In this document: positions 5,244-37,853 of the stretch, piece after piece
How positions within the stretch are numbered: the stretch's first letter is position 1
How the letters are laid out: each line of letters begins with the position of its first letter
Source: Bacilli bacterium
GTDB lineage: Bacteria > Bacillota_I > Bacilli_A > RF39 > UBA660
DNA: 64,000 nucleotides
NCBI GenBank assembly: GCA_017409785.1
Contig: JAFQSD010000004.1
Location: 130,910 to 194,909 of the forward strand
Direction: 5' to 3'
Notes under the pieces: model-generated
Seen by the model: only the letters and a program-made list of their open reading frames with translations
The model's database searches: none
Told to the model about the DNA's origin: nothing
Made by a program: the position numbers and the translations under genes

Positions 5244-6113
5244 ATGCAATATTTTCAAATATTAACATGTAATGATGCCCTAGGAACTTGTTGTACTGAT
5301 TTTGCTTTAGCATCAGTATTAGATGTAGTACGCAAATTCTTTAATATATTTCAATTAGTAGTTCCAATTCTTTTAATTGTTGGAGTGACAATTCAATTAA
5401 TAAAATTAATGAGTAATCCAGATGAAAAAGGTGGCGGAAAAAAAGTAATAAATAGAATTATTGCTGCTGTAGTTTGTTTCTTCCTACCAATGATGGTTGA
5501 CGTTGTACTTGGAATGATAAGTCAAACATCAACATTTAAAGTAGCAGATTGCTGGGAATTAGCCAAAATATCAAGTGAAGTTTCTCAAGCAAATAAAGCA
5601 ACGTATATTAATCCATATAAAGATGAAGAAAGAAAATCAATTTTAATTGATCCAAGCCTTTATAAACCAGGAACACCATCTAATCCAACTGGTTCAGATC
5701 CACAACCCGGTAATGGACAAGCTTCATTATTAGGTTCTCAAATAGTAGTATATGCCAAAAAATTCGTAGGACAAAGATATGTATATGGTGGTTCATGGAA
5801 CGGAGAACTACCATACACCCCAACTGACTGTAGTGGATTTGTTCAAGGAGTATTTAAACATTTTGGTATAAGTCTTCCAAGAACCACATCGACTCAATGG
5901 GCTGCTAAGTCAAAATATCAATTAGTAAGTCCAGCAGATATTAGAGCAGGAGACCTAGTAATGTATGACGGTCATGTCGGAATATTAACAGGTATTGGTA
6001 CAGAAGTAGTTCATGCTAAAGGATCAAAATGGGGAGTTGTTCTTGATCCTGACTATAGAACTTGTTCTAGTCATGCAATCCTTGGAATAATGCGAATTAA
6101 TGGTGTAAATTAG
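5244..6113 (+). CDS. Fusion protein: an N-terminal two-helix pilin-like membrane hairpin plus a C-terminal NlpC/P60 (C40) cell-wall peptidase.
   Basis: The N-terminal region ...IQLIKLMSNPDEKGGGKKVINRIIAAVVCFFLPMMVDVVLG is paralogous to ORF 26057 and to the C-terminus of ORF 26470. The C-terminus has the C40 Cys and His motifs DCSGFV...GHVGIL. AGGAGG RBS. Confidence 0.6.
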   Translation: MQYFQILTCNDALGTCCTDFALASVLDVVRKFFNIFQLVVPILLIVGVTIQLIKLMSNPDEKGGGKKVINRIIAAVVCFFLPMMVDVVLGMISQTSTFKVADCWELAKISSEVSQANKATYINPYKDEERKSILIDPSLYKPGTPSNPTGSDPQPGNGQASLLGSQIVVYAKKFVGQRYVYGGSWNGELPYTPTDCSGFVQGVFKHFGISLPRTTSTQWAAKSKYQLVSPADIRAGDLVMYDGHVGILTGIGTEVVHAKGSKWGVVLDPDYRTCSSHAILGIMRINGVN

Positions 6114-15940: not shown

Positions 15941-15951
15941 GAGGTGAGGTT

Positions 15952-19732: not shown

Positions 19733-20224
19733 ATGAACAAAGGAATGTTAACAGTAGGAATTATCATGTTAAGTCTAATGGCACTATTATTAATCAATGT
19801 CATTAGTAACTACTCAACTGGTGGAGAATTAGACTACTACCTAGTAAAAGAAACAACAGAGGCTGCAATGGAAGATGCCATTGACCTTGAATATTACAGA
19901 ATGAATTCATTATTAAGAATCGACAAAGAGAAGTTCGTAGAGAGCTTCCTTCGTCGATTTGCCGATAATGTCGATAATACACGTTCATACACAGTGAGCT
20001 TCTATGATATTAATGAAGTTCCACCAAAAGTAAGTGTAAAAGTTGATTCTCATACAGTATTAAGTTTCTCAGGTTCAGCAGCAAATATTTCAACAAATAT
20101 TGATGCAATTCTAGAAACAGATTACGAAGAAGATAAATACACTGAAAAAGTATTATCAGATCCAGATAACGATGCTGGATATGGAATCGGTGATAGAAGT
20201 AATAGTGCGAAAGGAGCAGAATAA
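19733..20224 (+). CDS. Bitopic membrane protein with a pseudopilin-like (TadE/TadF-like?) N-terminus.
   Basis: N-terminal hydrophobic segment MNKGMLTVGIIMLSLMALLLINVISNY. First gene of the Tad-like module. Confidence 0.3.
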   Translation: MNKGMLTVGIIMLSLMALLLINVISNYSTGGELDYYLVKETTEAAMEDAIDLEYYRMNSLLRIDKEKFVESFLRRFADNVDNTRSYTVSFYDINEVPPKVSVKVDSHTVLSFSGSAANISTNIDAILETDYEEDKYTEKVLSDPDNDAGYGIGDRSNSAKGAE

Positions 20225-20226
20225 AA

Positions 20227-21033
20227 ATGGGGAATCTTAGTACAGGAATAAAAAAGTTCTTACAAAACAAGAATACCGTAACAGTACTTGGAGTTGTTGT
20301 TGCAATCATCATATTATATGTTGCATACAATATGCGTGTTCAATCAGCAATTAATCCAATTAATGTTCCATATGCTAAAGAACAAATTTCACCTGGTACA
20401 CAAATTACAGCAAACATGGTTGGAACAAGAGCTGTACCACCATCAATGCTTGAAGGAGATGTAATCACATCTCAAAGTGCTGTAATTGATAAGTATTCTA
20501 GTGCTGATACAGTAATACCTGCAGGAAGTCTATTCTATGCAAGAACTGTAGTAGAAAAAGAACAATTACCTGCAAATATTATTCTTACTTATCCAAAAGG
20601 ATATGTATTATATAATATGTCAGTTACAACATCAACAACATATGGAAACTCAGTTTATCCAGGAAACTATATTGATATTTACTTAAAAGCAGTAAATAAA
20701 ATTGGTGAAGACGAAGAAATGACTGCTGATGCTGATAAAATCATGTTAGGAAAACTAATGTCTAACGTTAAAGTTTTAGCAGTAAAAGATTCTTCTGGAC
20801 AAGCAGTTTTCTCAAATCTAGATGAAAAAAGAACACCTGCAATGATCGTATTTGCAGTACCAGAAGAATATTATATTTTACTTAAAAAAGCAGAATATTT
20901 AAGAACATATGATTCAACACTAATCCCAGTTCCAACAAACGAAAGTTTAAAAGACGAACCAGGAGAATTAGAAATCAGTAGTGAATCATTAAAAGACTGG
21001 ATTAACAAAGTTACAGTTTGGACAGAATCATAA
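20227..21033 (+). CDS. cpaB: CpaB/RcpC-like SAF-domain Flp pilus assembly protein.
   Basis: N-terminal TM segment followed by a SAF-like segment VPYAKEQISPGTQITANMVGTRAVPPSMLEGDVI. Confidence 0.55.
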   Translation: MGNLSTGIKKFLQNKNTVTVLGVVVAIIILYVAYNMRVQSAINPINVPYAKEQISPGTQITANMVGTRAVPPSMLEGDVITSQSAVIDKYSSADTVIPAGSLFYARTVVEKEQLPANIILTYPKGYVLYNMSVTTSTTYGNSVYPGNYIDIYLKAVNKIGEDEEMTADADKIMLGKLMSNVKVLAVKDSSGQAVFSNLDEKRTPAMIVFAVPEEYYILLKKAEYLRTYDSTLIPVPTNESLKDEPGELEISSESLKDWINKVTVWTES

Positions 21034-21078
21034 AAAAGAAAAAAAGAATTACAAAAGAATTAAAGGGATGTGAGTTAG

Positions 21079-22470
21079 ATGAATGAAAATATATTTGATA
21101 AGTTAGACTTTGGTGCATTTCGTCCGTTACTAGACAACGATGATATTACCGATATTTCATATAGTAATGGGGGACAAATATGGATACGTTCTCTAACTCA
21201 AGGATCCCTAAGAGTAGAAATCGATGGTGCAACTCCAGAATTCGTTGAAAAACTAGCATTTCAATGTTCCAACGTTATGGGAACAACCTTCAATAATGCT
21301 AAGCCATTCTTAGATGCTGAATCTGCTGAGTTACGTATGAACTTCGTTCACCAATCAATTGCGACAAATGGAATTGCCTTAGTTATTCGTAAAACTCCAG
21401 CAAAAATCCGTTTGGAAAAAGAAAAATTGATTAAAGATGACTACTTCACAAGAGATATACATGACTTACTAATTAAATGTGTTCAAGGACACTGTAATGT
21501 CATGGTAGCAGGAGAAACTGGTTCCGGAAAAACAGAGTTCGTTAAGTACTTAGCCAGTCATACAAAAACAAGTGAAAAAATTATTACAATCGAAGATACA
21601 TTGGAACTTCACTTAGACAGAATCTTCCCACAAAGAGATATTGTTTCAATGAAGACCAACAATGTAGCAAGTTACTCAGATGTATTAGTTACTTGTATGC
21701 GTCAGAATCCAAAATGGATTCTACTTTCCGAAGTACGTAGTGCAGAAGCGGTTTCTGCAGTACGTAACTCAATTTCATCAGGACACAACATTTTATCTAC
21801 AATCCACGCTGACAAAGCATCAGCTATTCCATATCGTCTATATTCATTAATGGAAACTGACTTAGATGTACATCAATTCTTATCAACAATTTATCGTTAT
21901 ATTCAATTAGGTGTACATATTAAAGCTTACTACAGTAAAGAAAGAGGAAAATTCCATCGTGAATTAGATGAAGTGTGTGAATTCTATGTAGATGATGATA
22001 ATGTTCCACAATCTAGAATAATTTATCAAAAAATATTTGGTAAAAATCCAGTAATGAGAAAACCAAGTGATCATTTACTTCAATTCTTAGAAAATCAAAA
22101 TATTGATGTAAGTGCTATTGTTGATAAATTACCTGATGATATGCCATTTAAAGAACAAGAAGAAATTAAGTTAGAAAATGATCAAGACAATCAAACAACT
22201 GCTCAACCAGAAGCAACAAGTGAAACACCAGCAATAGAAAACAAACCAGTAGAAGAGCCAAAATTGGTTGAAGAAAAAAAAGAAGTAGTACAACCAGAAC
22301 AACCAACATTGCAACCACTTAATGAATCACCTCAACCAACACAACCTGCTCCTCAATTAGTTGCACAACCAAGCGAGCCAGTACAACAAGTAACACAACA
22401 ACCTGTACAACAACCAGCTCAACCGCAAGTACAACAACCAGCAGTTACTAAATTAGATAGTCTATCATAA
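21079..22470 (+). CDS. cpaF: CpaF/TadA-type (VirB11 superfamily) secretion ATPase with a Pro/Gln-rich C-terminal extension.
   Basis: Walker A motif VMVAGETGSGKTEF, Walker B/Asp box ITIEDTLEL, His box STIHADKA, and WILLSEVRSAEA. The C-terminal ~100 aa are QP/PQ-rich low complexity. Confidence 0.8.
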   Translation: MNENIFDKLDFGAFRPLLDNDDITDISYSNGGQIWIRSLTQGSLRVEIDGATPEFVEKLAFQCSNVMGTTFNNAKPFLDAESAELRMNFVHQSIATNGIALVIRKTPAKIRLEKEKLIKDDYFTRDIHDLLIKCVQGHCNVMVAGETGSGKTEFVKYLASHTKTSEKIITIEDTLELHLDRIFPQRDIVSMKTNNVASYSDVLVTCMRQNPKWILLSEVRSAEAVSAVRNSISSGHNILSTIHADKASAIPYRLYSLMETDLDVHQFLSTIYRYIQLGVHIKAYYSKERGKFHRELDEVCEFYVDDDNVPQSRIIYQKIFGKNPVMRKPSDHLLQFLENQNIDVSAIVDKLPDDMPFKEQEEIKLENDQDNQTTAQPEATSETPAIENKPVEEPKLVEEKKEVVQPEQPTLQPLNESPQPTQPAPQLVAQPSEPVQQVTQQPVQQPAQPQVQQPAVTKLDSLS

Positions 22471-22485
22471 TAGAAAGGAGTTTGT

Positions 22486-23388
22486 ATGTATTTAGAAGAG
22501 TTATTAATAATTATAGTAATTATAGTTGGTATTTTCTTATACAGAAATTACAAAGGACAAAATGTTGGTAAATTTATTACTGAACAAGTAACAACAATCT
22601 ATGAAAAATACGCACCATTCTCCTTTAAAGTTGTTAGAGAAAAAGCCAAAGAATTAGGACAAGAGTATAGTACAAAACAATATATTATGCAAATATGTTT
22701 ATTTGCAGGAGGAGCTGCAGCCATAAGCTACTTATACTTTTACAACATTGTTATAAGTTTATTCTATGCTGTAATTGCCGTTACTTTTGTTCCTTATCTA
22801 GCATACTTAAGATGTAAAAGAGTATATAGTGAATTTATTTTTGAGCAAATCCAAGTATATACATCAAACGTAATTATGGAATTTGCTACAACTCAATCAT
22901 TTGTTAAGTCATTAGAAGGAGTTAGAAATTCAGGAATCTTAGAAGATCCAGTTCTAAGTGACGTTAATCACATGATTGAATTATCTTATGACAATGGTAC
23001 TATTGATGAAGCCTTAGCATATATGAGTGAATTATATCCATATTATATAGTTAAGAATATGCATCAATTATTCTTACAAATTACAAAAGAAGGTGCTCGT
23101 AACTCAGCAGATTCACTTGATAACATGCAACTTGATATCGACATGTTAATTGAAAGTGTATATCGTGACCGTATTGAAAGAGCATCATTCCACAAAAACT
23201 TCTTAACATTCGGATTTACATTATATTTACTTGTAATGTTAGTTCAACTCCTACTAGGAAATGAAAGTTATATCATTCTACTAGAAAGATGGTATATCCA
23301 AGTATTATTACATGCAGTAATTGTTGTTAATACATATTTCCTTTTAAAAGGAGAAAAATACTATAATGAGAATGTAGGTGCTGAATAA
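22486..23388 (+). CDS. tadB: TadB-like (T2SSF/GspF-domain) pilus assembly inner-membrane protein.
   Basis: About 300 aa with N-terminal and C-terminal TM pairs flanking a cytoplasmic alpha-helical domain. Adjacent to cpaF. Confidence 0.5.
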   Translation: MYLEELLIIIVIIVGIFLYRNYKGQNVGKFITEQVTTIYEKYAPFSFKVVREKAKELGQEYSTKQYIMQICLFAGGAAAISYLYFYNIVISLFYAVIAVTFVPYLAYLRCKRVYSEFIFEQIQVYTSNVIMEFATTQSFVKSLEGVRNSGILEDPVLSDVNHMIELSYDNGTIDEALAYMSELYPYYIVKNMHQLFLQITKEGARNSADSLDNMQLDIDMLIESVYRDRIERASFHKNFLTFGFTLYLLVMLVQLLLGNESYIILLERWYIQVLLHAVIVVNTYFLLKGEKYYNENVGAE

Positions 23389-24194
23389 TGGAAGTATTAA
23401 TTATTGGAGCAATCATATTATTTGTATTAGTATATAACAATACCATTGATAAGAATAAGTTCTTCGCAGATAATGAAAAATATCTAGAATCATTAAAAGA
23501 AAAAGATTATGAGTTCCTAGTATATGCAAGATATGGAGATCAAGTTGATGTTAAACAACTATATATGCAAAGAGTTACATATGCACTTATAACATTCTTC
23601 ATTGTATTAGGATTTGCAGTTAGTGGAGGAAATCAAGATAAACTTGGTTCAGAGTTCTTCCTATATTTAGCAATAGCTGCAGTAGTAGCCTTTATAGTTT
23701 TTAAATCATCATATACCCAATTAAAAGGTTATTATAAAAAACACTTACATGAAATTGACGTTATGTTACCATACTATTTAAAGAGTTTGGAAATCTTAAT
23801 CCAACACTATACAGTTCCAGTAGCATTAGGTAAGTCAATAGACGATGCTCCTGAAATATTTAAACCAGGATTAAGAAAATTAATTGATCGTATCAATGCC
23901 GGAGATTCAACAATTGATCCTTACATGGAATTTGCAAATACATATCCTGTAAGAGATTCAATGCGTATGATGCGTCTATTATATCGTCTTGGATTAGGTT
24001 CACAAGAAAAGAAACAAGAACGTTTAATGATGTTTTCAAGAACTGTTTCAACACTACAAAACAAAGCTCGTGAAACAAAATATAAAGAACGTTTAGGATT
24101 CATGGAATCTCAAACTATGGTAATGTTAGTTGTTACCGGAGTTGGTGTAATGTTAATTATTTTAATCTCAATGATGATGATGTTCAGTATGTAA
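23388..24194 (+). CDS. tadC: TadC-like (T2SSF/GspF-domain) pilus assembly inner-membrane protein.
   Basis: Same architecture as ORF 22486. ATGA start/stop overlap with tadB. Confidence 0.5.
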   Translation: MEVLIIGAIILFVLVYNNTIDKNKFFADNEKYLESLKEKDYEFLVYARYGDQVDVKQLYMQRVTYALITFFIVLGFAVSGGNQDKLGSEFFLYLAIAAVVAFIVFKSSYTQLKGYYKKHLHEIDVMLPYYLKSLEILIQHYTVPVALGKSIDDAPEIFKPGLRKLIDRINAGDSTIDPYMEFANTYPVRDSMRMMRLLYRLGLGSQEKKQERLMMFSRTVSTLQNKARETKYKERLGFMESQTMVMLVVTGVGVMLIILISMMMMFSM

Positions 24195-24210
24195 ACAATA
24201 CAAAAAAAAG

Positions 24211-24239
24211 TTGTTTAGTAGATTTTAATTTGCTATAAT
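24211..24239 (+). promoter_or_regulatory. Candidate sigma-A promoter (TTGTTT-17-TATAAT) dedicated to the small pilin-like gene.
   Basis: TTGTTT at 24211-24216 and TATAAT at 24234-24239, 32 nt upstream of the ATG at 24272. Confidence 0.4.
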
Positions 24240-24271
24240 TAAATTATGATAACGAAAGGATGGGATAATAA

Positions 24272-24439
24272 ATGAAAGATGCGACAGGTGAATTAAACTT
24301 AACAGTAATCACATTAGTAGCTATCGCTGCAGTTATTGGATTCTTCTGGGTAATGTGGCCAAATATTCAAAATGCCTTAAATACTCAATGGTCTAATATC
24401 AGTAGTGGAGGACCTGCTACAATCATAGTAGAAAGATAA
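24272..24439 (+). CDS. flp: 55-aa Flp/pilin-like small hydrophobic protein, absent from the ORF track.
   Basis: MKDATGELNLTVITLVAIAAVIGFFWVMWPNIQNALNTQWSNISSGGPATIIVER: a short polar leader ending in Gly, then a hydrophobic helix. AAGGATGGG RBS and its own promoter. It has no E at +5, so it is not a canonical G/XXXXEY Flp. Confidence 0.4.
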   Translation: MKDATGELNLTVITLVAIAAVIGFFWVMWPNIQNALNTQWSNISSGGPATIIVER

Positions 24440-24458
24440 CAAAAAGAGGGTGTTTTAA

Positions 24459-24914
24459 ATGCGTGATGCTTTTGGAGGAGTTGCCAACTTAGTTATTATA
24501 GTTGTATTCCTTACTTTAGTTTCTGGATATTTAGCGTTTAACGTTAACTATACCAAAGCATTCAGAGTTAAGAATAAAATAATTTCTTTATATGAACAAT
24601 ATGAAGGAGAACAATGTTACCACAACGATACAAGTGAATGTAATATTAAAATTCGTGACTATATGAATGCACTTGGATACGATGCTCCATATCTAAATCT
24701 AGAAGGATACAATTGTTATTATGGATATTGTGCAAAAAAATTTGAAACTGAAAAAGTAGATGACAGCGTAACGGGTGACACTAAGAAAAAAGCGTATTAC
24801 AACATTGTAACGCAAATAAATATTGATATTCCTATTATTAATAAGATACTACCGGGATTGAAAATATTTCAAATAGCCGGTGATACAAAACCAATCGTAA
24901 TTGGAATTGGCTAA
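24459..24914 (+). CDS. TadE-like pseudopilin (putative minor pilin).
   Basis: N-terminus MRDAFGGVANLVIIVVFLTLVSGYLAF: a short leader with GG then a hydrophobic helix. Cys-containing extracellular part. AGAGGGTG RBS. Confidence 0.35.
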   Translation: MRDAFGGVANLVIIVVFLTLVSGYLAFNVNYTKAFRVKNKIISLYEQYEGEQCYHNDTSECNIKIRDYMNALGYDAPYLNLEGYNCYYGYCAKKFETEKVDDSVTGDTKKKAYYNIVTQINIDIPIINKILPGLKIFQIAGDTKPIVIGIG

Positions 24915-24931
24915 AAAGAGGGTGATACTGA

Positions 24932-26002
24932 GTGAACGTAATAGTTTCAAATGAACAACAAAGTCAAACAGCTAATTTAGATGTCGATATAATTAAAAGT
25001 ATTACTGGAGCATATAGTTCAATTGAACTAGTAGAAATGTTTAAGAATTTCTTCTACAGTAAAATGGTTTTAGATGTAACATCTATTAAAAATTATCAAA
25101 ATATCTTAGAATATAAAACATTAGCTGATGGATTAGATCCAGATAAAATTATTTTCTTTATTCCAGAAGGAAGTAGTTTATGTACACCTAACTTTCTAGC
25201 TAAACTAGTAACGTTGGGAATATATAATTTCACAACTAATATAGATGGAGTAAAATATTTATTAAAAAAATCAAACACATTTAATGATGTAGCTCACATT
25301 CAACAAATGGGCGGTGGTGTTATTGAAGAACTTCAACAACCACCACAACCAGACCCTGCGGAACAAGGGGCTCAAACTCAACAAGGAACTTTTGTAGCTC
25401 CGGCACATCATGTTCAAGTTCAGCAAGGAAGTATGGCTAGAACAATAAAAATTGGTGTACGTAATGTTACAGACCATGCAGGAGCAACAAGTTTGATATA
25501 TATGTTCAAAAAAGAACTTACATCAGTATTTGGTGAAAGTAACGTTGTTGCAATAGAAATTAATAAAAATGATTTTCAATTCTATAATGATAAGAATATG
25601 ATATCAACAACAACTAATGACATAAAGACAGTTATTGAAAGATATAATGGAGTATCTGTACTGTTAATAGATTTAAATGATTTTGAAGATAACACAATTT
25701 GTGATGATGTTCTATATTTATTAGAGCCAAGTACTTTAAAATTAAATAAGTTAATTAGAAAGAATAAACATATTTTTGGTAAAATAAAAGATAAAAAAAT
25801 TGTATTCAATCAAAGTTTATTAACTAGTAAAGATATAAGTGAGTTAGAATACGAAGCGGGAATCAAATCCTTCTTTAATCTACCTCCAGTTAATGATAGA
25901 AAGAAAAACGAAATAGTAACAGAATTACTTGCAAAACTTGGATTATTACAAATTACAGGTGGCAATAATTCTGGTAAAATATTTGGTCTATTTAGACGTT
26001 AA
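24932..26002 (+). CDS. TadZ/CpaE-like protein: a pseudo-receiver N-domain plus a ParA/MinD-like domain with a degenerate P-loop.
   Basis: GTG start with AAGAGGGTGA RBS. The second half has IKIGVRNVTDHAGATSLIYMF where ParA has KGGVGKTT, and VLLIDLND is a Walker-B-like box. Confidence 0.35.
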   Translation: MNVIVSNEQQSQTANLDVDIIKSITGAYSSIELVEMFKNFFYSKMVLDVTSIKNYQNILEYKTLADGLDPDKIIFFIPEGSSLCTPNFLAKLVTLGIYNFTTNIDGVKYLLKKSNTFNDVAHIQQMGGGVIEELQQPPQPDPAEQGAQTQQGTFVAPAHHVQVQQGSMARTIKIGVRNVTDHAGATSLIYMFKKELTSVFGESNVVAIEINKNDFQFYNDKNMISTTTNDIKTVIERYNGVSVLLIDLNDFEDNTICDDVLYLLEPSTLKLNKLIRKNKHIFGKIKDKKIVFNQSLLTSKDISELEYEAGIKSFFNLPPVNDRKKNEIVTELLAKLGLLQITGGNNSGKIFGLFRR

Positions 26003-26005
26003 TAT

Positions 26006-26034
26006 TTGACAAAAAAAATGATATAATGTATTAT
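26006..26034 (+). promoter_or_regulatory. Candidate sigma-A promoter (TTGACA-17-TATTAT) upstream of the pilin-like gene 26057.
   Basis: TTGACA at 26006-26011 and TATTAT at 26029-26034. An alternative -10 is TGATATAAT. Confidence 0.35.
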
Positions 26035-26056
26035 ATACATTGAAGGAGAGGTTTGT

Positions 26057-26377
26057 ATGTTAGAATTAGTTCAATTAGCTTCAGCATGTGGAGGATTAGA
26101 CCCACTAGTAAGTTTAGTTAAAAACGGGTTGTTCCCAATCGTATATATTATTATTCCAATTGCATTACTTATTTATGCAGTTATCGATTTTGGTAAGGCA
26201 GTAATTGCAAGTGATGAAAAAGAAGTTAAAGCAGCACAAAGTAGATTAATCAAACGTGCAATTTATGCAGCACTAATTTTCTTCGTAGTATTCCTAGTTA
26301 AAGCAATTATGGATGTAGTTGCTAAAGGTGGAACTGGAAATACTGGAGATTGGTGGTCTTGCTGGGAATCAGTATAA
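26057..26377 (+). CDS. Two-helix hairpin membrane protein, a VirB2/TrbC-like T4SS pilin candidate.
   Basis: The 106-aa sequence ...PIVYIIIPIALLIYAVIDFGKAVIASDEKEVKAAQSRLIKRAIYAALIFFVVFLVKAIMDVV... is paralogous to the N-domain of ORF 5244 and to the C-domain of ORF 26470. Confidence 0.45.
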   Translation: MLELVQLASACGGLDPLVSLVKNGLFPIVYIIIPIALLIYAVIDFGKAVIASDEKEVKAAQSRLIKRAIYAALIFFVVFLVKAIMDVVAKGGTGNTGDWWSCWESV

Positions 26378-26469
26378 TATAGACAGTAAAATAAAAAATA
26401 GTAAATAAATTGCTATTTTTTTTTTCTTCTGATATACTTAATATGTTATAATGTATTTGGAGTGATCTT

Positions 26470-27552
26470 ATGAAAAAAAAGCAACTATTTGGTTTGATTT
26501 TATTAATGTTAATAACATTATTTATACCAAATAACATCAATGCAAAAGAGAAAAAAGTAATTTGTGAATATCAATATAAAAACCAAGAATTAATTTATAC
26601 AATTGATAATAAAGTAATTCTTCCATTTGAGGATGGAAAAGACAATTGGTATCATGGACAAGATTTTAAAAATAACTATTTGAAAAATTCAAAAATAAAT
26701 AGCAATACTTATGTATGTCCAACAATAACAATTGAAGAATCTGATAGTTTTATAACAATATTTAATAATCCAAGAAGTGAAGATGAGTGTAGTGGAGTAT
26801 GTACAACTCTATCAGCAATAAACTATCAGTCAAGTAAAAATATAAATGTTAAAAAAGCAGTAGATACTACTGCTATTAGTAGTGTAGGAATTTATAATCA
26901 AGATAATTACTTTATTCCATATTTTAGATTATTAGAAGACGGTACAAAAGAATGGTCAGTTGATGGAATTAATTACAAGCCAGTAACTGAAAAAGTAGAA
27001 AATGACAAACTAGAAATAAGTTTAGATAAGTCATTAATTGAAGAAATTTATCAAGATAAAAACTTAAATAAAAATGTCACAATATATAGAAATGTAAAAA
27101 ATGATAATAACAAATATATCTATTTATTAGCAACACATAAAGTATCTGGTTACAATTTAAATGACGGACAAGAAACTAGTGCTAGAGCATATCATGCTGC
27201 ATATGGTGACCCAGACATAGATGAGTGGTTAGAAGATTATAATCAAAACCAAGATTGTTCTGGAGATAATAGTATTCTAGGAAGTTATAACGACCCTAAC
27301 TCAGTAGCATACTTCCTACAAATAATATTTAATTGGTTAAAACTTATTGGTCCATTTATAGTTATAGTTATGAGTGGTATAGATTTTGCTAAAGTAATCG
27401 TAATGGGTGATGATGATGGAATGAAGAAAGCTCAAACAAAATTAATCATCAGATTAATTCTTGCAGCATGTTTATTCTTCTTACCAGATTTAATCAAAGC
27501 ATTCTTAGACTTATTCAATATTACATCAAGTGGAATCTGTGGATTACAATAG
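26470..27552 (+). CDS. Secreted protein with a ~270-aa ectodomain fused to a C-terminal pilin-like two-helix domain.
   Basis: Signal peptide MKKKQLFGLILLMLITLFIPNNINA. The C-terminus GIDFAKVIVMGDDDGMKKAQTKLIIRLILAACLFFLPDLIKAFLDLF matches the ORF 26057 family. Confidence 0.45.
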   Translation: MKKKQLFGLILLMLITLFIPNNINAKEKKVICEYQYKNQELIYTIDNKVILPFEDGKDNWYHGQDFKNNYLKNSKINSNTYVCPTITIEESDSFITIFNNPRSEDECSGVCTTLSAINYQSSKNINVKKAVDTTAISSVGIYNQDNYFIPYFRLLEDGTKEWSVDGINYKPVTEKVENDKLEISLDKSLIEEIYQDKNLNKNVTIYRNVKNDNNKYIYLLATHKVSGYNLNDGQETSARAYHAAYGDPDIDEWLEDYNQNQDCSGDNSILGSYNDPNSVAYFLQIIFNWLKLIGPFIVIVMSGIDFAKVIVMGDDDGMKKAQTKLIIRLILAACLFFLPDLIKAFLDLFNITSSGICGLQ

Positions 27553-27580
27553 TTTAAAGCAAAAAAGAGGTGATTAGTAA

Positions 27581-29653
27581 ATGACAGATTATATGACAGC
27601 CAATACGATAAACGATCTATTCAGAAGTTTATTCGCATTATTAGATAGAGCAGCATATATGATGCTTGGATGGATGTATGAAATCTTGTTCAATGTAGCA
27701 AGTGCAGACATTTTTGCCAATGATACAGTTCAAAAATTTTATGGACGTATACAAATGATCATTGGTGTATTCATGCTATTCAAATTAGCTGTTTCAATTA
27801 TTCAAGGTATAATTAATCCTGATACTTTTACAGATAAAAAGTCAGGATTTTCGCACATAATTTCAAGAGTAGTTTTTGCTTTAATAATGTTAACCGTGTT
27901 AACTCCAATTAATATTCCAGGAGCAAGAAGTAGTTATGAAATTAATCTTAACAATAACGGATTATTATTCGGAACATTATATGAATTACAAGATAGAATT
28001 TTAGAAAATAATACATTAGGTAGATTAATATTAGGTACAAATGATGGAACTACTGGAAGTGGTAGTGGTGGTACAAATACAGCGCTAACGCAAGCTGAAA
28101 AGTTAAAAAAATCATCTAATATGTTTACCGCAACTATTCTTAAAGGATTCATTAGAATCAATATGAAAGAGTCTGGCGGAATGGATGAAACAAATCCAGA
28201 TGATAGAGTTTGTGACTATATTGATCAAGAAGTACTTGATGTATATGCAGATTTAGAAACAAGTCCAAATCAATTATTATCATTAGTTAATGCTAGCTGT
28301 GAATATCAAGGAAATGATGGATTCTTCGATACAATGGCAGCATTCTTTACAAGATTATTTACAGGTGATAGATACGTATTTGCATATATGCCAATTATCT
28401 CAACAATTGTAGCAGCCGTATTTATCTATATTTTACTAGGAGAAATAATTACAATTGCAATTCGTTCAATAAAACTTGCAGTATTAAGACTTTTAGCACC
28501 AATCCCAATTATTAGTTATATTGATCCAAAATCAGAAAAAGATGGTGCATTTGCTTCATGGACTAAATCATTAACATCAACTTATTTAGAATTATTTATC
28601 CATTTAGCAGTAATTTATTTCGTAATATTCTTAATCCAAGACATGATTGTTAATGGATTAGTAATCAATACAGGAACAGGTGTTATTGGAGTAATATCAT
28701 GTATCTTCATCTGGATAGGATTATTCTTCTTCGTAAAACAAGCACCTAAGTTCATTAAAGATATCCTTGGAGTAAAAGGTGGAAGTTCAAATGTTGGACT
28801 TGCCGGATTACTTGGAGGAACAGCAATGCTTGCTGGCGGTGGAGGAATGTCAGGATTTGCTCTTGGAGCAATGCAAGGTTTCGATGCTGCAGTACAAGGT
28901 AATAATCAAGGAAAAGCAGCACCACTTGGTGCAATTTGGACACAAAATAGCAATAAAATGGCCCAAATCAGAACTGGAGACAAAGATGCTCAAGGTGGAT
29001 TATGGGGACAAGCAATGGACCGTTTCAACTACGATACACGTGAAGCTCAAGCTAGAAGACTTGGAATCGGTTCAAACGATGTTGCCGATGCTAAATACAT
29101 TAAAGATCAACGTGAAGCTGAAGCAAATAATGCTAAACGTAACCTAGACTTTGCTGCACGTGAAGTAGAATATGCAAAAGCTGAAATGGAAGCTGCAAGA
29201 TACGAACTTGATAGAACAGCTGAAGGTTCAACAGAACGTACATCTGCAGAAGCTAGATATAGAGCTGCTCAATCTAGATATGCAGATGCTCAGACAGGAT
29301 ATACAACAGCATATACACAAAACGAAGCATACCAAGAAGCATATGGAAAAGCTTCATCTGCATACGAAAAAATGGATAAAGACAGAGCTCAAATGGGTGT
29401 TGGTCCACGTATCAGTGATAAACGTGGAGATCGTGCAACTTATAGATCACCACATAAAGCAGATGGTACATACACTCCATACACAGCTGATGAAACAGGA
29501 AGAAATGCACCAAGAAGTGAAGATGATATTAAAGGAACAATTACAGGACATAGTAATGACCTTAAAAACTTCAGTGGTACAACAGATGACTCTGGTATCG
29601 GTTCTATGGGTGGAGGAGCCCGTGGTGGTGGACCAGGACCAGGACGTCCATAA
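27581..29653 (+). CDS. VirB6/TrbL-like polytopic T4SS channel protein with a long hydrophilic C-terminal tail.
   Basis: At least 6 TM segments with large loops (TcpH/ConG-like). The C-terminal ~250 aa are A/Q/R/Y/E-rich coiled coil ending in GGGARGGGPGPGRP. Confidence 0.55.
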   Translation: MTDYMTANTINDLFRSLFALLDRAAYMMLGWMYEILFNVASADIFANDTVQKFYGRIQMIIGVFMLFKLAVSIIQGIINPDTFTDKKSGFSHIISRVVFALIMLTVLTPINIPGARSSYEINLNNNGLLFGTLYELQDRILENNTLGRLILGTNDGTTGSGSGGTNTALTQAEKLKKSSNMFTATILKGFIRINMKESGGMDETNPDDRVCDYIDQEVLDVYADLETSPNQLLSLVNASCEYQGNDGFFDTMAAFFTRLFTGDRYVFAYMPIISTIVAAVFIYILLGEIITIAIRSIKLAVLRLLAPIPIISYIDPKSEKDGAFASWTKSLTSTYLELFIHLAVIYFVIFLIQDMIVNGLVINTGTGVIGVISCIFIWIGLFFFVKQAPKFIKDILGVKGGSSNVGLAGLLGGTAMLAGGGGMSGFALGAMQGFDAAVQGNNQGKAAPLGAIWTQNSNKMAQIRTGDKDAQGGLWGQAMDRFNYDTREAQARRLGIGSNDVADAKYIKDQREAEANNAKRNLDFAAREVEYAKAEMEAARYELDRTAEGSTERTSAEARYRAAQSRYADAQTGYTTAYTQNEAYQEAYGKASSAYEKMDKDRAQMGVGPRISDKRGDRATYRSPHKADGTYTPYTADETGRNAPRSEDDIKGTITGHSNDLKNFSGTTDDSGIGSMGGGARGGGPGPGRP

Positions 29654-29676
29654 TATAAAGAGGAGTGTGATACATA

Positions 29677-30003
29677 GTGCGTAACTATTTAATTCCTGCA
29701 AACACAAAAAGAGGGAAATTAATACTAGGAATGTTTAAACCGTTTGATTTAGTGTTATTTGGAACAGGAATTCTTATTACATTTATATTTCTAGCATTCA
29801 TGCCGCTAAGCTCAACACTTGTAACAATACTTGTGTTGAGCCCAGCGCTTGTTACTGGATTCTTAGTTTTACCTGTACCTTATTATCACAACATACTAAA
29901 TATCCTAATTGAAATGTATGAATTTATAACAACAAATCAAACATATAGATGGAAAGGTTGGTGTTTTAGAAGTGGCGAAAAAGTCATCAAAAAACGTAAG
30001 TAG
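29677..30003 (+). CDS. Small 2-TM membrane protein (VirB3-like candidate).
   Basis: GTG start with AAGAGGAG RBS. 108 aa with two hydrophobic helices, immediately upstream of the VirB4 ORFs. Its 3' end overlaps ORF 29972 by 32 nt. Confidence 0.35.
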   Translation: MRNYLIPANTKRGKLILGMFKPFDLVLFGTGILITFIFLAFMPLSSTLVTILVLSPALVTGFLVLPVPYYHNILNILIEMYEFITTNQTYRWKGWCFRSGEKVIKKRK

Positions 30004-30532
30004 TGGTTATACTGAAGATTGGCTACCAGTCCGTGGTATTCAAAATAACATGATAATTACTAGAGATAATTACAAAGTAACAGGAGTTAAAATATCTCCA
30101 AAAAATATTTTTATCTTGGACCCAATTGCTCAAGATAATATGTTAATAAGTTTAAAGAATTTTTATAACACAATTGATTTTGAATTCTGGCTAGTAGTTG
30201 CTGATAGACCGGTAGACATCTCTGTATATCTATCACAAATGCAATTACTATATAATGAAGCACATACACCAGCAATTAGAAAATTAATTATGCAAGATAT
30301 TAATAAAGGACATACTTTTATCAATAATAGTATTGTTGATACTGAATATTATTTCTTATTCAAGTCAAAAGACCCTGATCTTTTAGCCAAAAGAGTAAGA
30401 ATGATGATTAATGGTCTTGCATCATGCGGATTAGCTGCTGCTCAAGCAAGTAATTCGGATTTAAGAATAGTATTAGATAACTTCCTAAACGGAGGAAGTA
30501 CAACAGAGTTTGGGGTGGTGATGCCAGTATGA
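29972..30532 (+). CDS. VirB4 N-terminal domain-like protein (a separate ORF coupled to the VirB4 ATPase).
   Basis: 186 aa, GTG start. Its stop overlaps the ATG of the VirB4 ATPase (ATGA at 30529-30532). Hydrophilic, with no TM segment. Confidence 0.4.
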   Translation: MAKKSSKNVSSGYTEDWLPVRGIQNNMIITRDNYKVTGVKISPKNIFILDPIAQDNMLISLKNFYNTIDFEFWLVVADRPVDISVYLSQMQLLYNEAHTPAIRKLIMQDINKGHTFINNSIVDTEYYFLFKSKDPDLLAKRVRMMINGLASCGLAAAQASNSDLRIVLDNFLNGGSTTEFGVVMPV

Positions 30533-32319
30533 GTACCGGATTAAGAAGTCAATTAGCTCCAAAAGGGCTACATTTCTCACCAAGTGAGTTTTTCATAAGT
30601 GATAAGTATGCAACTATTTTAACAGTTGTATCATTTCCAAAATACATAACACCAGGTTATTTATCATCATTAACAAATATGGCAGGAATTAAAATTGTTA
30701 TTAAACATATTCCTGTTCCATATCAAGATATGGTTAAGATGTTAAATAAAGAAGTAGCAGATTTAAAAGAAAAATATCGTAATGAAAGAGACCAAACTAT
30801 TCGTGAAAGATTAAGACAAGATGCAGAAAGTTTGGAATACTTCACATCAATGATTGCAGGAAGTCAAGCAAGAAACTTCGATTTCCAAATGCATATCATG
30901 ATTGCTGCAAATACAAAAGAAGAATTAGAATTAAAGAAAATGAATGTTAAAAACTACTTAGATGCAATGGAATTAAGAGCAATTTCCCTACGTTTTGAAC
31001 AAGAAAAAGTTCTTAAATCAATGTTACCAATTTTCCCTGCTCAAGATATTGAACAAAGAATTGGAACACCAATTCCATCAGTAACAGTAGCAGCAATGTA
31101 TCCATTTATTTTCGATAGTATTAAAGACCCAGGATTATCAACACTACTTGGAGTTGATTTCTCTGGAGGAGTAATTCTATTTAATCAATTCTTATATAAA
31201 ATAAGAAAAGAACATAATAGAAATAATGCTAATATGATTATCTTAGGAACATCTGGTTCCGGAAAATCAACAGCAGCAAAATTATTACTAAGAACACATA
31301 TTAGAAATGGATGTCAAATTGTTATTATCGACCCAGAAGATGAATTTAGAGAAATTACTAGATCATTTGGTGGAGATACAGTAGATATTGGTAAAGGTGG
31401 AGAATTTGGTTTAATCAACCCACTAGAAGTAATCTTCGATGCTGATGAAGAAGAAATTAAACAAGGTATGGGATACACAGTATTAAATAGAACATTAAAC
31501 TTCTTAAAAGGTTTTATGAAATACTATAATCCATCAATTGCACAAGATGTTTTAGCAATGTTTAGTGATGTAGTTCAAGATACATATAAACGTTTTGGAA
31601 TTGACTTTGAAACAGATTTCTCAAACTTCACATCAAAAGATTTCCCAGTTTTCTCAGATGTTTATGCAACAATCAAAGGAAGACTACTTTCTATGACAGA
31701 TCAAACTAAAGAAAGAGATATCATGGAAAGACTTGAATTAGAAGTAAGACCAATCGTTAAAGAATTAAGATTCTACTTCGATGGTCATACAACATTACCA
31801 AGAGATAGTGATTTCATGGTATTTAATATTAAAGAATTAATGAATAGTGATGCAAATATTAGAAATGCCTTATTATTCAACGTCTTAAAATATGCTTGGG
31901 GAATGTGTTTAGACCCAAGTGTAGATACAGTATTATTAGTTGATGAAGCACACGTATTAATGAGTAGCAGAAACCAACAAGGTTCAGAATTCTTAGCTCA
32001 AGTACAAAGACGTGCTCGTAAATATAACACAGGAACTATTATTATTACTCAACAACCAAGTGACTTCGCTGATGAGGCTGTAATCACTGATGGTAAAGCA
32101 ATTTTCGATAATGCTTCTTACTATCTAGTAATGGGATTAAAGAAACAAGCAGTTGAAGATTTATCAAGATTAATAGACCTAAATGAAAATGAAAAAGAAA
32201 GTATCAAACGTTATTCTCAAGGAGAAGCACTATTCGTTTGTGGAAGCAGACGTATGAGAATTAACGTAGTAGTTACAAAAGAAGAATTAGATTCATTCGG
32301 CTCAGGCGGAGGATTCTAA
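30529..32319 (+). CDS. virB4: VirB4/TrbE/CagE-family T4SS ATPase (Gram-positive ConE/TcpF/PrgJ-like).
   Basis: Walker A motif MIILGTSGSGKST and Walker B motif VLLVDEAHVLM. N-terminal YATILTVVSFPKYITPGYLSSL. Confidence 0.8.
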   Translation: MSTGLRSQLAPKGLHFSPSEFFISDKYATILTVVSFPKYITPGYLSSLTNMAGIKIVIKHIPVPYQDMVKMLNKEVADLKEKYRNERDQTIRERLRQDAESLEYFTSMIAGSQARNFDFQMHIMIAANTKEELELKKMNVKNYLDAMELRAISLRFEQEKVLKSMLPIFPAQDIEQRIGTPIPSVTVAAMYPFIFDSIKDPGLSTLLGVDFSGGVILFNQFLYKIRKEHNRNNANMIILGTSGSGKSTAAKLLLRTHIRNGCQIVIIDPEDEFREITRSFGGDTVDIGKGGEFGLINPLEVIFDADEEEIKQGMGYTVLNRTLNFLKGFMKYYNPSIAQDVLAMFSDVVQDTYKRFGIDFETDFSNFTSKDFPVFSDVYATIKGRLLSMTDQTKERDIMERLELEVRPIVKELRFYFDGHTTLPRDSDFMVFNIKELMNSDANIRNALLFNVLKYAWGMCLDPSVDTVLLVDEAHVLMSSRNQQGSEFLAQVQRRARKYNTGTIIITQQPSDFADEAVITDGKAIFDNASYYLVMGLKKQAVEDLSRLIDLNENEKESIKRYSQGEALFVCGSRRMRINVVVTKEELDSFGSGGGF

Positions 32320-35513: not shown

Positions 35514-37853
35514 ATGAAACTTAAATTTCGTGCAGACCCAGAAGATTGGATGATATTTGGTATATTTGCAGTTGCATTATTGTACGTTATTGCAATTGGT
35601 GTAGTAAATCTAGCATCATTCGCATCAGATGGAACCTTATCAGGGTTAAATCCTTTTCCTGCGTTTAGCACAGAACATATAACAACAACATTAGTATTAT
35701 ATTTCTTAACACTTGGTGGTCTATTCGTAAGTGTTAGTTCATACTTTTTTGAAAGAGAAAAAGGTTTTGGTCTAACAGCCGATAAAAAAGACAAAGGATA
35801 TTCAAGATGGGCTAAAGATAAAGAAATCAAAGAAGAATTAAAATGTGTTAAAATTCAACAAAAAAATTCTAAAGCCGCAGGTATTCCAATTATCTTGAAT
35901 AAAGAAGAAATGTGGGTAGACGACAGTGAATACCACTCATTAGTAATCGGAGCTACTGGGTCAGGTAAAACACAAGGTATTGTATTCCCACAAGTTAATA
36001 GTTTAGCTAAAGCTAGAGAGTCAATGATTATTACCGACCCTAAAGGTGAAATCTATGAACAAACAAGTTTAATGTTACGAAAAAGAGGATATCAAATCTT
36101 ACTTTTAAACTTCCGTGATCCACAAAACGGTAATGCATGGAATCCATTATCATTACCTTATAAAATGTACAAATCAGGAAATCAAGATAAAGCAATCGAG
36201 TTATTAGACGACTTAGCATTGAACATTCTATATGATGATTCAAATAAAAATGCTGACCCATTCTGGGAGAAAACATCAGCAGACTACTTTTCTGGAGTAG
36301 CTCTAGGATTGTTTGAAGATGCTAAAGAATCAGAAATTAATATTAATAGTATTTCCTTAGCAACAACAGTTGGTGAAGAAAAATTTGGTGGTTCAACATA
36401 CATCAAAGAATACTTTGCAGCTAAAGACCAATCAAGTGCAGCTGCAATCAATGCATCAAGTACAATCATGGCACCATCAGAAACAAAAGGAAGTATCCTT
36501 TCAGTATTTAAACAAAAAGTTAAATTATTCGCATCACGTGAAAATTTAAGTGAAATGTTATCACATAGTGATATCGATTTAGAGAGTATTGGTGCAAGAC
36601 CAACTGCCGTATTCATCGTTATTCAAGATGAAAAGAAAACATATCACTCATTAGTAACAATTTTATTAAAGCAAATATATGAAACACTAATTTCTACAGC
36701 ACAAAAGAATGGTGGAAAACTACCAGTAAGAACTAACTTCATTCTAGATGAGTTTGCCAACATGCCACCATTAAAAGATGTTACAACAATGATTACTGCC
36801 GCACGTTCACGTAGAATTAGATTTACAATGATTATTCAAAACTTTGCACAATTAGATGGTACATATGGTAAAGATGATGCCGAAACAATCAGAGGTAACT
36901 GTGGTAACATAATTTACCTAATTACAACAGAACTTAAAGCCTTAGAAGAAATTTCAAAAATGTGTGGTGAAGTAAAATCTAAGAAAGATGATAAAACTGC
37001 CTCAACACCACTTGTTACAGTATCAGACTTACAACGTATGAAACAATATGAAACAGTAATATTAAGAATGCGTAAACAACCATTCAAAACAAAACTTACA
37101 CCAAACTGGCAATTAGATTGGGGAATAAAATATCCTAATGCCAAGTATCCAATACGTAAGAAAGTAGAAGTTGATACTTTTGATATTAAAGAGTTTGTTA
37201 AAGATCAAAAGAAGAAAAAGTTATTAGAAATGATGAATGGATCAGATGATGCTAAAAAAGAGGTTATGTCTAAACTACCTCCAGCAGATTTCATGAAAAA
37301 AGATCCACTTCCATTTGATAAACCTGCAGAAGCAGCAAGAATTCCTGACTTCTTAACAAGAGGGCCTATCGAACCAGAAGAAAGAAAAGTTATGGGTGGC
37401 GGAAGAGTATCTGCTCCAGCAAGACCACCAGTTTATGAAGAACCAATATCTAAACCACCAGTTGATGATGATTTGGGATTTGATGTAGACGAGTTAGTAA
37501 AGAAAATTGATGCTAAAATTGCTGAACTTGAAGAAGAAGAAAGACGCAATAAAGCAGGAGCAACTGCAACACCAGCAACTAAGCCACAACCAATTATCAA
37601 TAAGCCAGTTGCAGTACCTAAACAACAACCATTACCAACAGAGACACCAAGTTCTGATGGTGGCGCAGTTTCAAGTATTGATGAATTCTTAAGTAAAGCA
37701 CCAGTAGCTGAAACAACAATGCCAAAGATTAAACCTTTAGAAGAAAAAGTAGTCGAACCAATTAATAGTGTTGTCAAACCTAAAGACAACTTATCATTAT
37801 CAGATGAAGAAAATGATGATGATGATTTCTTTGATGACTTTTTTGATAATTAA
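35514..37853 (+). CDS. virD4: VirD4/TraG-family type IV coupling protein with a long disordered acidic C-terminal tail.
   Basis: Two N-terminal TM segments. Walker A motif VIGATGSGKTQG and Walker B motif NFILDEFANMPP. The C-terminal ~250 aa are P/A/K/E-rich and end in EENDDDDFFDDFFDN. Confidence 0.75.
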   Translation: MKLKFRADPEDWMIFGIFAVALLYVIAIGVVNLASFASDGTLSGLNPFPAFSTEHITTTLVLYFLTLGGLFVSVSSYFFEREKGFGLTADKKDKGYSRWAKDKEIKEELKCVKIQQKNSKAAGIPIILNKEEMWVDDSEYHSLVIGATGSGKTQGIVFPQVNSLAKARESMIITDPKGEIYEQTSLMLRKRGYQILLLNFRDPQNGNAWNPLSLPYKMYKSGNQDKAIELLDDLALNILYDDSNKNADPFWEKTSADYFSGVALGLFEDAKESEININSISLATTVGEEKFGGSTYIKEYFAAKDQSSAAAINASSTIMAPSETKGSILSVFKQKVKLFASRENLSEMLSHSDIDLESIGARPTAVFIVIQDEKKTYHSLVTILLKQIYETLISTAQKNGGKLPVRTNFILDEFANMPPLKDVTTMITAARSRRIRFTMIIQNFAQLDGTYGKDDAETIRGNCGNIIYLITTELKALEEISKMCGEVKSKKDDKTASTPLVTVSDLQRMKQYETVILRMRKQPFKTKLTPNWQLDWGIKYPNAKYPIRKKVEVDTFDIKEFVKDQKKKKLLEMMNGSDDAKKEVMSKLPPADFMKKDPLPFDKPAEAARIPDFLTRGPIEPEERKVMGGGRVSAPARPPVYEEPISKPPVDDDLGFDVDELVKKIDAKIAELEEEERRNKAGATATPATKPQPIINKPVAVPKQQPLPTETPSSDGGAVSSIDEFLSKAPVAETTMPKIKPLEEKVVEPINSVVKPKDNLSLSDEENDDDDFFDDFFDN

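Follow-up and report, generated by a model that had tools for sequence, protein, structure and literature searches.

Pilin-like membrane hairpins at a chromosomal type IV secretion locus and in a putative cell-wall hydrolase of RF39 Bacilli

VirB2, a pilin of type IV secretion systems (T4SSs), lies in the membrane with its termini outside and a basic loop inside, and transfer depends on it even when no pilus is made; TrbC and T-pilin are cyclised head to tail. Among the systems that have been described, those of the Patescibacteria are chromosomal, mostly relaxase-less and furnished with arrays of PF18895-type pilins, and in strain ML1, Ca. Southlakia epibionticum, the pilin array is essential (PMC12102498, PMC12857230). 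According to a review of December 2025, Gram-positive T4SSs other than those of the Patescibacteria lack VirB2 and VirB5 (PMC12857230). Here we describe a 64,000-nucleotide stretch of DNA (the window; positions 130,910 to 194,909 of the forward strand of contig JAFQSD010000004.1, assembly GCA_017409785.1) from a Bacilli bacterium of the uncultured, reduced-genome gut order RF39, in which three proteins share one two-helix membrane hairpin: PilA and PilB, encoded in tandem beside T4SS genes, and a 289-aa protein in which the hairpin is followed by an NlpC/P60 domain.

It is probable that these are ancient paralogues of a single membrane hairpin module of family PF18895 (T4SS_pilin), with PilA and PilB representing pilin-like components of a chromosomal T4SS and the 289-aa protein a hydrolase anchored by the same hairpin elsewhere in the genome. 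Both the hairpin family and the T4SS are of known kinds. A fixed pilin pair in the core chromosomal T4SS of a Bacillota order, an optional ectodomain whose fold is unknown and the recruitment of the hairpin as a hydrolase anchor all appear undescribed in the searchable literature, in which nothing relevant was found on RF39 with T4SSs or pili.

A membrane hairpin shared by three proteins

The three open reading frames (ORFs) were confirmed at 26057-26377 (106 aa), 26470-27552 (360 aa) and 5244-6113 (289 aa), each downstream of a Shine-Dalgarno sequence; PilA and PilB are working names for the first two products, and the third is referred to as the hairpin-NlpC/P60 protein. A first-pass annotation of the window had proposed that all three share one segment, which constitutes the whole of PilA, follows an ectodomain in PilB and precedes the peptidase domain in the 289-aa protein, and both the shared segment and this layout are borne out. 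In composition-corrected BLASTP comparisons, the hairpins of PilA and PilB matched with an E value of 4e-13 (34% identity over 73 aa), those of PilA and the 289-aa protein with 3e-8, and those of PilB and the 289-aa protein with 8e-8. Uncorrected pairwise scores were 38.5-49.3 bits, against maxima of 18-22 bits when one partner was shuffled 100 times. When all six-frame ORFs of the window were scanned with a hidden Markov model (HMM) of the family, the three hairpin ORFs scored 125 (PilA), 107 and 101 bits and the next-best ORF 9.7 bits, despite the presence of many other membrane proteins; there are exactly three copies of the hairpin in the window.

Because of the shuffling controls and this gap in HMM score, the likeness is best attributed to homology rather than to generic transmembrane (TM) composition. 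The first-pass annotation had named purely compositional similarity as one outcome that would overturn its proposal, and this found no support in the alignment and HMM comparisons. The possibility that the likeness is of that sort, or that the hairpins belong to a phage-type holin or lysis module, is practically negligible: the segments are indeed short and hydrophobic, a profile built from them returns spurious matches in the PDB, and the NlpC/P60 domain resembles those of phage tail lysins, but the corrected E values, the shuffles and the low scores of all other membrane ORFs in the window contradict it, as does a conserved signature that is not hydrophobic, comprising a Cys pair, a Pro in helix 1, K/R positions and an FF motif in helix 2. 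A phage holin or lysis identity was likewise rejected because the hairpins had no PHROG hit and phage genes were not seen nearby.

A profile of the three copies retrieved 9,383 cluster representatives at E <=0.001 among 1.84 billion proteins. Among the best 147 of these, taken as family representatives, 63 matched PF18895 (E <=0.001), 58 were bare hairpins, 64 had a signal peptide and an N-terminal extension ahead of a C-terminal hairpin (170-582 aa), and 25 had an N-terminal hairpin with a C-terminal extension, the latter including NlpC/P60 (11 members), M23, CHAP, Amidase_5 and GDSL lipase domains. With 64 and 25 of the 147 representatives being fusions, such architectures are standard variants of this PF18895-type hairpin family. 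The 289-aa protein itself scores 28.1 bits against PF18895, above the gathering cut-off of 26.6, and an orthologue of PilB (P0347; L and P numbers label the related loci and proteins compared) has a weak precomputed match to the same family.

Hydropathy identifies two hydrophobic helices in each copy, the small two-TM layout of PF18895, and an AlphaFold (AF2) model of PilB predicts a hairpin of two helices (Table 1) that turns at an acidic GDDDG motif. In all three copies, the connecting loop carries five to six K/R residues, compared with none to two in the outer tails, and cysteines are confined to the tails, being absent from loops and helices. The orientation is further marked by the signal peptide and Cys-rich ectodomain that precede TM1 of PilB, and by the extracytoplasmic enzyme that follows TM2 of the 289-aa protein. 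Since loop charge, tail cysteines, the PilB N-terminus and the placement of the hydrolase all agree, each hairpin is predicted to be inserted so that its two ends lie outside and its K/R-rich tip faces the cytoplasm. One Cys before helix 1 and one after helix 2 are invariant within each subfamily; both are present in 140 of the 147 representatives, a frequency at which covariation between them is uninformative. Judging from this conservation, the pair is probably a disulfide staple joining the two ends of the hairpin.

PilA and PilB at a type IV secretion locus

PilA, of which there are 663 homologues, has relatives in 168 species-level genomes, and the loci of the best 80 of these were compared. 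These 80 are listed as Bacilli bacterium, uncultured Tenericutes, Mycoplasma sp. CAG:877, Candidatus Faecimonas and similar names, Candidatus Faecimonas being GTDB genus CAG-877 of order RF39 (PMC8035907). The PilA-PilB tandem is present in 76 of the 80 loci, the other four being cut contigs, and its order is fixed: the first gene always encodes a bare hairpin of 101-134 aa, and the second always an N-terminal extension followed by a hairpin. The length of this extension varies between 21 and about 417 aa: it is no longer than 134 aa in 46 loci, an ectodomain of the window type in 28, and a different ectodomain of about 415 aa in two. Even where PilA is 84-89% identical, as between the close relatives L011 or L012 and L013, the extensions can be 264-272 aa in the former and 63 aa in the latter. 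The PilB ectodomain is thus facultative, gained or lost among close relatives, and is the fastest-evolving part of the protein.

Conservation falls from PilA through the PilB hairpin to the ectodomain. In one genome, PilA is 99% identical to that of the window where PilB is 66% and VirB6 69% identical, and between loci L009 and L010 the corresponding values are 97% for PilA, 91% for the PilB hairpin and 58% for the ectodomain. PilA itself varies in its tails and has an invariant loop. This pattern is consistent with PilA as the conserved core subunit and PilB as a minor, surface-exposed specificity subunit. A signal peptide is found in PilB, but neither in PilA nor in the 289-aa protein, and nearly all of the 64 family representatives with an extension and a C-terminal hairpin have an N-terminus of the same type. 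PilB begins with a signal peptide, continues with some 235 aa of ectodomain and ends in the hairpin, which is reached through a disordered linker. The ectodomain is confidently modelled, and its predicted structure has no known structural relative. By an estimate from F-pilus geometry, crowding would be excessive if each subunit carried a 25-kDa domain, pointing to a low stoichiometry or a tip position for PilB. The role of tip adhesin is plausible for the ectodomain.

The promoter-like site upstream of pilA (Table 1) is the best in the 3.5-kb region scanned, in which the number of such sites is not above shuffled expectation. Between pilA and pilB, the AU-rich hairpin followed by a U run folds at -10.9 kcal/mol (z = -3.0), none of 200 shuffles folding as well; it was missed by a scan for G+C-rich terminators. 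Together, these two features might suit over-production of one subunit.

PilA and PilB lie directly upstream of VirB6, VirB3 and VirB4 genes, both here and in every related locus that was compared, the genomic neighbourhood expected of PF18895. The complete order of Tad-like and T4SS genes is kept in the seven full-length loci with a listed order, and matches to nearly every gene of the cluster recur across the 80 loci, the VirB4 ATPase being 79-98% and VirD4 66-96% identical. The cluster is flanked by housekeeping genes, with greA on one side and rhodanese, DedA, RmuC and trpS genes on the other; in L001 and L003, it follows the same flank (the yrr operon, then greA), where the hairpin-NlpC/P60 protein is 54% identical. 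Given this synteny and conserved housekeeping flank, the system appears to be chromosomal and vertically inherited rather than a recent mobile element. No relaxase, integrase or transposase domain was found in any ORF of the 26-kb cluster of surface, Tad-like and T4SS genes (12575-39088), which within these bounds lacks the combination that marks a conjugative element, namely a relaxase and integration or excision genes beside those for mating-pair formation. A tblastn search of 72,556 plasmids with PilA and the hairpin of the 289-aa protein gave no match.

Downstream of pilB, the VirB6/TrbL-like assignment is consistent with the multiple TM segments of the window protein and with the L008 orthologue, which also matches TrbL_4. 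This protein is extended, a TM core reaching to about residue 400 being followed by a charged, coiled-coil-like, Gly-rich low-complexity tail of some 290 aa. Positions 57-122 of the NF045890 model (pLS20_p028) match the hairpin of the 289-aa protein and positions 230-374 match VirB6, a hint of hairpin-VirB6 fusions in pLS20-type plasmids. VirB3, the N-terminal part of VirB4 and the VirB4 ATPase are encoded by three overlapping ORFs in frames 1, 2 and 1; a frameshifted pseudogene was rejected as the cause, as the split is kept in L006 and L008, which are from distant RF39 genomes, and in plasmid pBMB67 of Bacillus thuringiensis. From its domain content, the 773-aa SpoIID protein is a candidate VirB1-like cell-wall hydrolase of the T4SS. 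It starts with a low-complexity cytoplasmic stretch of about 190 aa, crosses the membrane once and ends in a domain of some 150 aa that is faintly Peptidase_C39-like (E 0.15) and may be a second catalytic domain.

The Tad-like module upstream of pilA is contiguous with the T4SS genes both in the window and in pBMB67 (L093, positions 24278-29668), and since the Tad-like set is accompanied by DUF5411 in both, this domain appears to be a component of a pilus-like module. Its 151-aa protein has an N-terminal TM segment; a prepilin peptidase was not recognised in the module. Further upstream, in the region 12575-19726, a sortase-like gene (15952-16782) is flanked by genes for large proteins of 517, 600 (Ig-like) and 985 aa, which are the fastest-evolving of the cluster (23-50% identity). 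A sortase-assembled pilus of these three proteins was considered and rejected, since all three lack an LPXTG-type signal at the C-terminus. The last protein of the cluster (407 aa, 37865-39088) contains DUF6273, which is also matched weakly by orthologues (L003, L091) of the 600-aa Ig-like protein (14138-15940) and may be a shared surface-binding domain. Outside the cluster, 12 tRNA genes (Val, Thr, Tyr, Gln, Lys, Leu, Ser, Met, Asp, Phe, Arg and Pro) lie on the forward strand at 61854-63040.

Table 1. Features of the hairpin genes and of the secretion locus, in window coordinates
Feature	Position	Strand	Details
Hairpin of 289-aa protein	5244..5582	+	TM 35-53 and 72-90; invariant Cys9, Cys16, Cys17 and Cys103 in outward tails (predicted)
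NlpC/P60 domain (PF00877)	5769..6038	+	residues 176-265; 56.9 bits, cut-off 23
Partner protein, 261 aa	6123..6908	+	N-terminal TM and extracytoplasmic domain; no known family
Tad-like module	19733..26002	+	DUF5411, CpaB/RcpC, TadA/VirB11-type ATPase, two TadB/C-like proteins, 55-aa Flp-like, 151-aa and 356-aa proteins
Promoter-like site	26006..26034	+	sigma-70-like, TTGACA-17-TATTAT, 11/12; consensus match only
pilA ribosome-binding site	26043-26052	+	GAAGGAGAGG
PilA	26057..26377	+	bare 106-aa hairpin; TM 25-43 and 71-89; invariant Cys11 and Cys102 in outward tails (predicted)
Terminator- or attenuator-like AU-rich hairpin and U run	26393..26425	+	between pilA and pilB
PilB signal peptide	26470..26544	+	residues 1-25, MKKKQLFGLILLMLITLFIPNNINA; hydrophobic segment 5-23
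PilB ectodomain	26548..27219	+	residues 27-250, beta-rich; invariant Cys32, Cys83, Cys107 and Cys111
PilB hairpin	27253..27552	+	flanking Cys263 and Cys357; AF2 helices 279-312 and 315-348
VirB6/TrbL-like polytopic membrane protein, 690 aa	27581..29653	+	TrbL_4 E 4.8e-4; NF045890 E 3.3e-10
VirB3-like protein	29677-30003	+	NF045975 model positions 2-96
VirB4 N-terminal part (TraC-like)	29972-30532	+	NF045975 positions 92-276
VirB4 ATPase	30529-32319	+	NF045975 positions 295-891
SpoIID-domain membrane protein, 773 aa	32347..34668	+	Pfam SpoIID 2.6e-12; TIGR02669; PDB 4rwr
Single-pass protein, 259 aa	between SpoIID gene and VirD4		
VirD4-type coupling protein	35514..37853	+	T4SS-DNA_transf 1.2e-58; NF045973 306 bits, above cut-off

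The hairpin-NlpC/P60 protein and the reading of the locus

The gene for the 289-aa protein lies between O-methyltransferase and U32 peptidase genes of the IreB-RuvX-DUF1292-YceG(MltG) operon, the yrr operon, and not in the T4SS neighbourhood expected of PF18895. The protein is represented by at least 120 full-length homologue clusters (276-314 aa), and the catalytic residues characteristic of NlpC/P60 enzymes, Cys196, His244 and His257, are invariant in 120 homologues; as far as its sequence can tell, it is an active-site-intact NlpC/P60 enzyme. Its N-terminal tail is more conserved than its TM helices (0.74 versus about 0.60). Downstream, the window, L001 and L003 all have a gene for a partner protein of about 240-260 aa, and that of the window is homologous (E 4e-32) to a gene that follows a hairpin-M23 fusion beside lgt in L090 (9845-10552). 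This sequence relationship suggests that the 261-aa protein is a dedicated partner of hairpin-anchored hydrolases, whether as regulator, inhibitor or scaffold, and, as the partner is common to NlpC/P60 and M23 fusions, that the enzyme domain is interchangeable on a constant chassis of hairpin and partner. A hairpin-GDSL fusion is also found among housekeeping genes. The first-pass annotation had regarded a pilin-hydrolase fusion as unusual, a view to be qualified: in this lineage such a fusion is a conserved single-copy gene and one of a series that extends to M23, CHAP, Amidase_5 and GDSL domains. Because these fusions occur in housekeeping contexts outside the T4SS cluster, the hairpin within them has more likely been co-opted to anchor the protein in the membrane than retained as a pilin that polymerises.

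On the reading that we consider probable, PilA and PilB would be tandem pilin-like subunits of a vertically inherited T4SS that has no relaxase in its cluster and is joined to a Tad-like module. PilA would be the highly conserved core subunit, handled by VirB6 and VirB4 and perhaps, or perhaps not, extruded as a fibre. The PilB hairpin would be exported by means of its Sec signal peptide, with the ectodomain displayed at the surface of the cell or fibre, making PilB a likely minor subunit and adhesin or specificity determinant. In the 289-aa protein, the hairpin would serve as an N-out/C-out anchor holding an NlpC/P60 peptidoglycan endopeptidase at the outer face of the membrane; this protein and its partner would be encoded by a module of two genes set within the mltG (yceG)/yrr operon, the enzyme acting most likely as a wall-remodelling autolysin rather than as a pilus subunit.

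A number of observations weigh against this reading. PilA and PilB score only 17.3 and 17.4 bits against PF18895 (E about 0.005), below the cut-off of 26.6, and PilA and the hairpin of the 289-aa protein match the pilin-like model of Mycoplasma integrative and conjugative elements (ICEs), NF045849 (Mbov_0395), with 15.0 and 14.9 bits (E 0.014-0.016), below its cut-off of 40. None of the three hairpins matches PF04956 (VirB2/TrbC) at E <=0.1, the probability assigned by hhalign to a relationship with F TraA is 0.07%, and a fold search of the hairpin returned generic helical hairpins alone, such that fold cannot discriminate. A profile of 32 hairpins likewise matched no pilin chain among PDB sequences at E <=10, the only hits being spurious ones to TM5-TM6 of G-protein-coupled receptors. 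The earlier proposal of a VirB2/TrbC-like protein hence stands with respect to topology and to position beside VirB6, VirB3 and VirB4, but not with respect to sequence, and the label 'pilin' rests on the family name, topology and genomic position, not on likeness to a proven pilin. PilA is also without the leader peptide typical of VirB2/TraA, and reviews report no pilus from a Gram-positive T4SS (PMC12857230). The disulfide, surface display and the adhesin and autolysin roles are moreover things that we infer, as are pilus formation, adhesion and any link between hydrolase and T4SS, and the 289-aa protein could equally serve the T4SS.

Two of these points, the missing cleavable leader and the lack of reported Gram-positive pili, favour a view to which we attach substantial weight, though somewhat short of even: that PilA and PilB are membrane channel or assembly subunits of a monoderm T4SS and do not form a fibre, with the PilB ectodomain a wall-spanning structure or a surface adhesin fixed at the machine. 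It differs from the preferred reading solely in the extrusion of a fibre. That the loop is the most conserved part of PilA is as expected for contact with a cytoplasmic or membrane partner, and pBMB67 has a protein with a signal peptide and two TM segments at the same position; by contrast, the variable tails of PilA and the fast evolution of the PilB ectodomain lean towards an exposed structure, and the promoter-like site and terminator-like hairpin belonging to pilA are as expected of a subunit made in excess. The question of which system the 289-aa protein serves admits another alternative, which seems unlikely, in which it is a VirB1-like wall hydrolase of the T4SS, its hairpin docking onto the platform of VirB6 and pilins and its endopeptidase activity complementing the glycan-cleaving SpoIID enzyme. 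In VirB1-like enzymes of Gram-positive bacteria, a TM anchor is usually followed by both a glycosidase and a peptidase, the latter of the CHAP or NlpC/P60 type (PMC12857230, PMC12102498), and in the SpoIID hydrolase of the cluster the SpoIID domain is clear but the C-terminus resembles a peptidase only faintly; PilA and PilB share the hairpin family of the 289-aa protein, and the gene for the latter is about 6.5 kb upstream of the start of the cluster in the window, L001 and L003. Nonetheless, the 289-aa protein has a peptidase domain alone, where the VirB1-like pattern is of a glycosidase with a peptidase encoded within the cluster, and its gene is embedded in a housekeeping operon with a conserved partner of its own. 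Hairpin-M23 and hairpin-GDSL relatives are also found in housekeeping contexts, and the hairpin of the 289-aa protein is a distinct, old subfamily with extra cysteines.

Here, a Bacillota order has PF18895 pilin-like genes at the canonical position in a conserved chromosomal T4SS, with PilA relatives in at least 168 species-level genomes, and the question of whether pili are made by monoderm T4SSs can now be put to another lineage, independent of the first. The occurrence of the same locus with and without a displayed ectodomain constitutes a natural series, and the fusions are evidence that a pilin hairpin has repeatedly been reused as the anchor of wall hydrolases. The locus is also a candidate cell-contact apparatus for RF39, the auxotrophies of which suggest dependence on other organisms. 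It is a quite improbable extension of these ideas that RF39, an abundant gut order, relies on a vertically inherited, relaxase-less T4SS to assemble a VirB2-like pilus on Gram-positive cells that have a wall, with the variable PilB ectodomain setting partner or host specificity and the hairpin acting as a general mounting module for wall hydrolases and lipases that breach the partner's envelope or open the cell's own wall; were this true, RF39 would resemble the epibiotic Patescibacteria, for which the T4SS and its pilin array are essential.

Comparison with known systems

The hairpin-NlpC/P60 protein, with its membrane anchor at the N-terminus and a Cys-His peptidase for peptidoglycan behind it, is built like the membrane-anchored VirB1-like hydrolases of Gram-positive T4SSs (PrgK, TraG of pIP501, CwlT and TcpG) and the housekeeping DL-endopeptidases CwlO and LytE. 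It is distinguished from these enzymes by the anchor, which is a pilin-family hairpin, by its single catalytic domain and by its location in the mltG/yrr operon together with a partner. The hairpin itself is like VirB2, TrbC and TraA in being a two-helix structure with termini outside and a basic loop inside, and in its genes adjoining those for VirB6, VirB3 and VirB4. By analogy, the Cys pair could link the N- and C-terminal tails as cyclisation does in TrbC and T-pilin, and PilB could have a VirB5-like role as an adhesive minor subunit, although VirB5 is a separate tip protein and the PilB ectodomain is fused to a pilin hairpin. The proteins described here differ from VirB2, TrbC and TraA in having no detectable sequence similarity to them, in including a leaderless PilA and in belonging to a monoderm walled cell.

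Of the NCBIfam models, it is NF045975 (Mbov_0397) of Mycoplasma ICEs that the VirB4 pieces match best, with 342 bits for the ATPase part, below the cut-off of 590. The numbering in the model names suggests that the order of genes there is the same, with a small membrane protein, a membrane protein and then VirB4. CDS15-17 of the Mycoplasma ICEA are essential for transfer (PMC6030558), CDS15 being, by our own mapping, Mbov_0395. Unlike the cluster in the window, these ICEs are mobile, reside in wall-less hosts and have VirB3 and VirB4 fused rather than split.

A more extensive likeness is found in pBMB67, a B. cereus-group plasmid, six components being homologous by BLASTP (VirB4C 1e-88, ATPase 2e-34, CpaB 8e-21, VirB4N 7e-14, TadB 1e-5 and TadC 3e-5). 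Its genes are ordered as VirD4 (CD1115 family), a signal-peptide and 2-TM protein, TrbL_4, PrgI, split VirB4, a large protein, DUF5411-like, SAF/CpaB, ATPases and TadB/C-like proteins. Shared with the window are gene sub-orders, the DUF5411-like gene, the splitting of VirB4 (in pBMB67 into PrgI, a 227-aa protein and DUF87) and a small protein with a signal peptide and two TM segments directly upstream of TrbL. That 126-aa protein shows no significant similarity to the hairpin (E about 0.003-0.01 when 14 sequences were searched), and has neither the Cys pair nor a PF18895 match; pBMB67 also differs from the window cluster in being a plasmid with a MobP3 relaxase, and has no second copy bearing an ectodomain. 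The tra region of pAW63 similarly includes homologues of VirB4, VirD4 and VirB11 (PMC9673590).

By analogy, the closest functional parallel is the T4SS of the Patescibacteria. The two differ in that the host here belongs to the Bacillota (RF39) and not to the candidate phyla radiation (CPR); in that the 2-11 similar small pilins of Patescibacteria contrast with a fixed pair, one bare and one ectodomain-bearing; in the third paralogue, fused to a hydrolase elsewhere in the genome; and in the pilus system, which here is Tad-like and contiguous with the T4SS. In both, nevertheless, tandem paralogues of a PF18895-type pilin-like protein lie near virB4 and VirB6, in a chromosomal, monoderm, MPF_FATA-like T4SS that comprises VirB3, VirB4, VirB6 and VirD4 without a relaxase in the cluster, and in both such a system is found alongside one of the type IV pilus class in organisms with reduced genomes and many auxotrophies.

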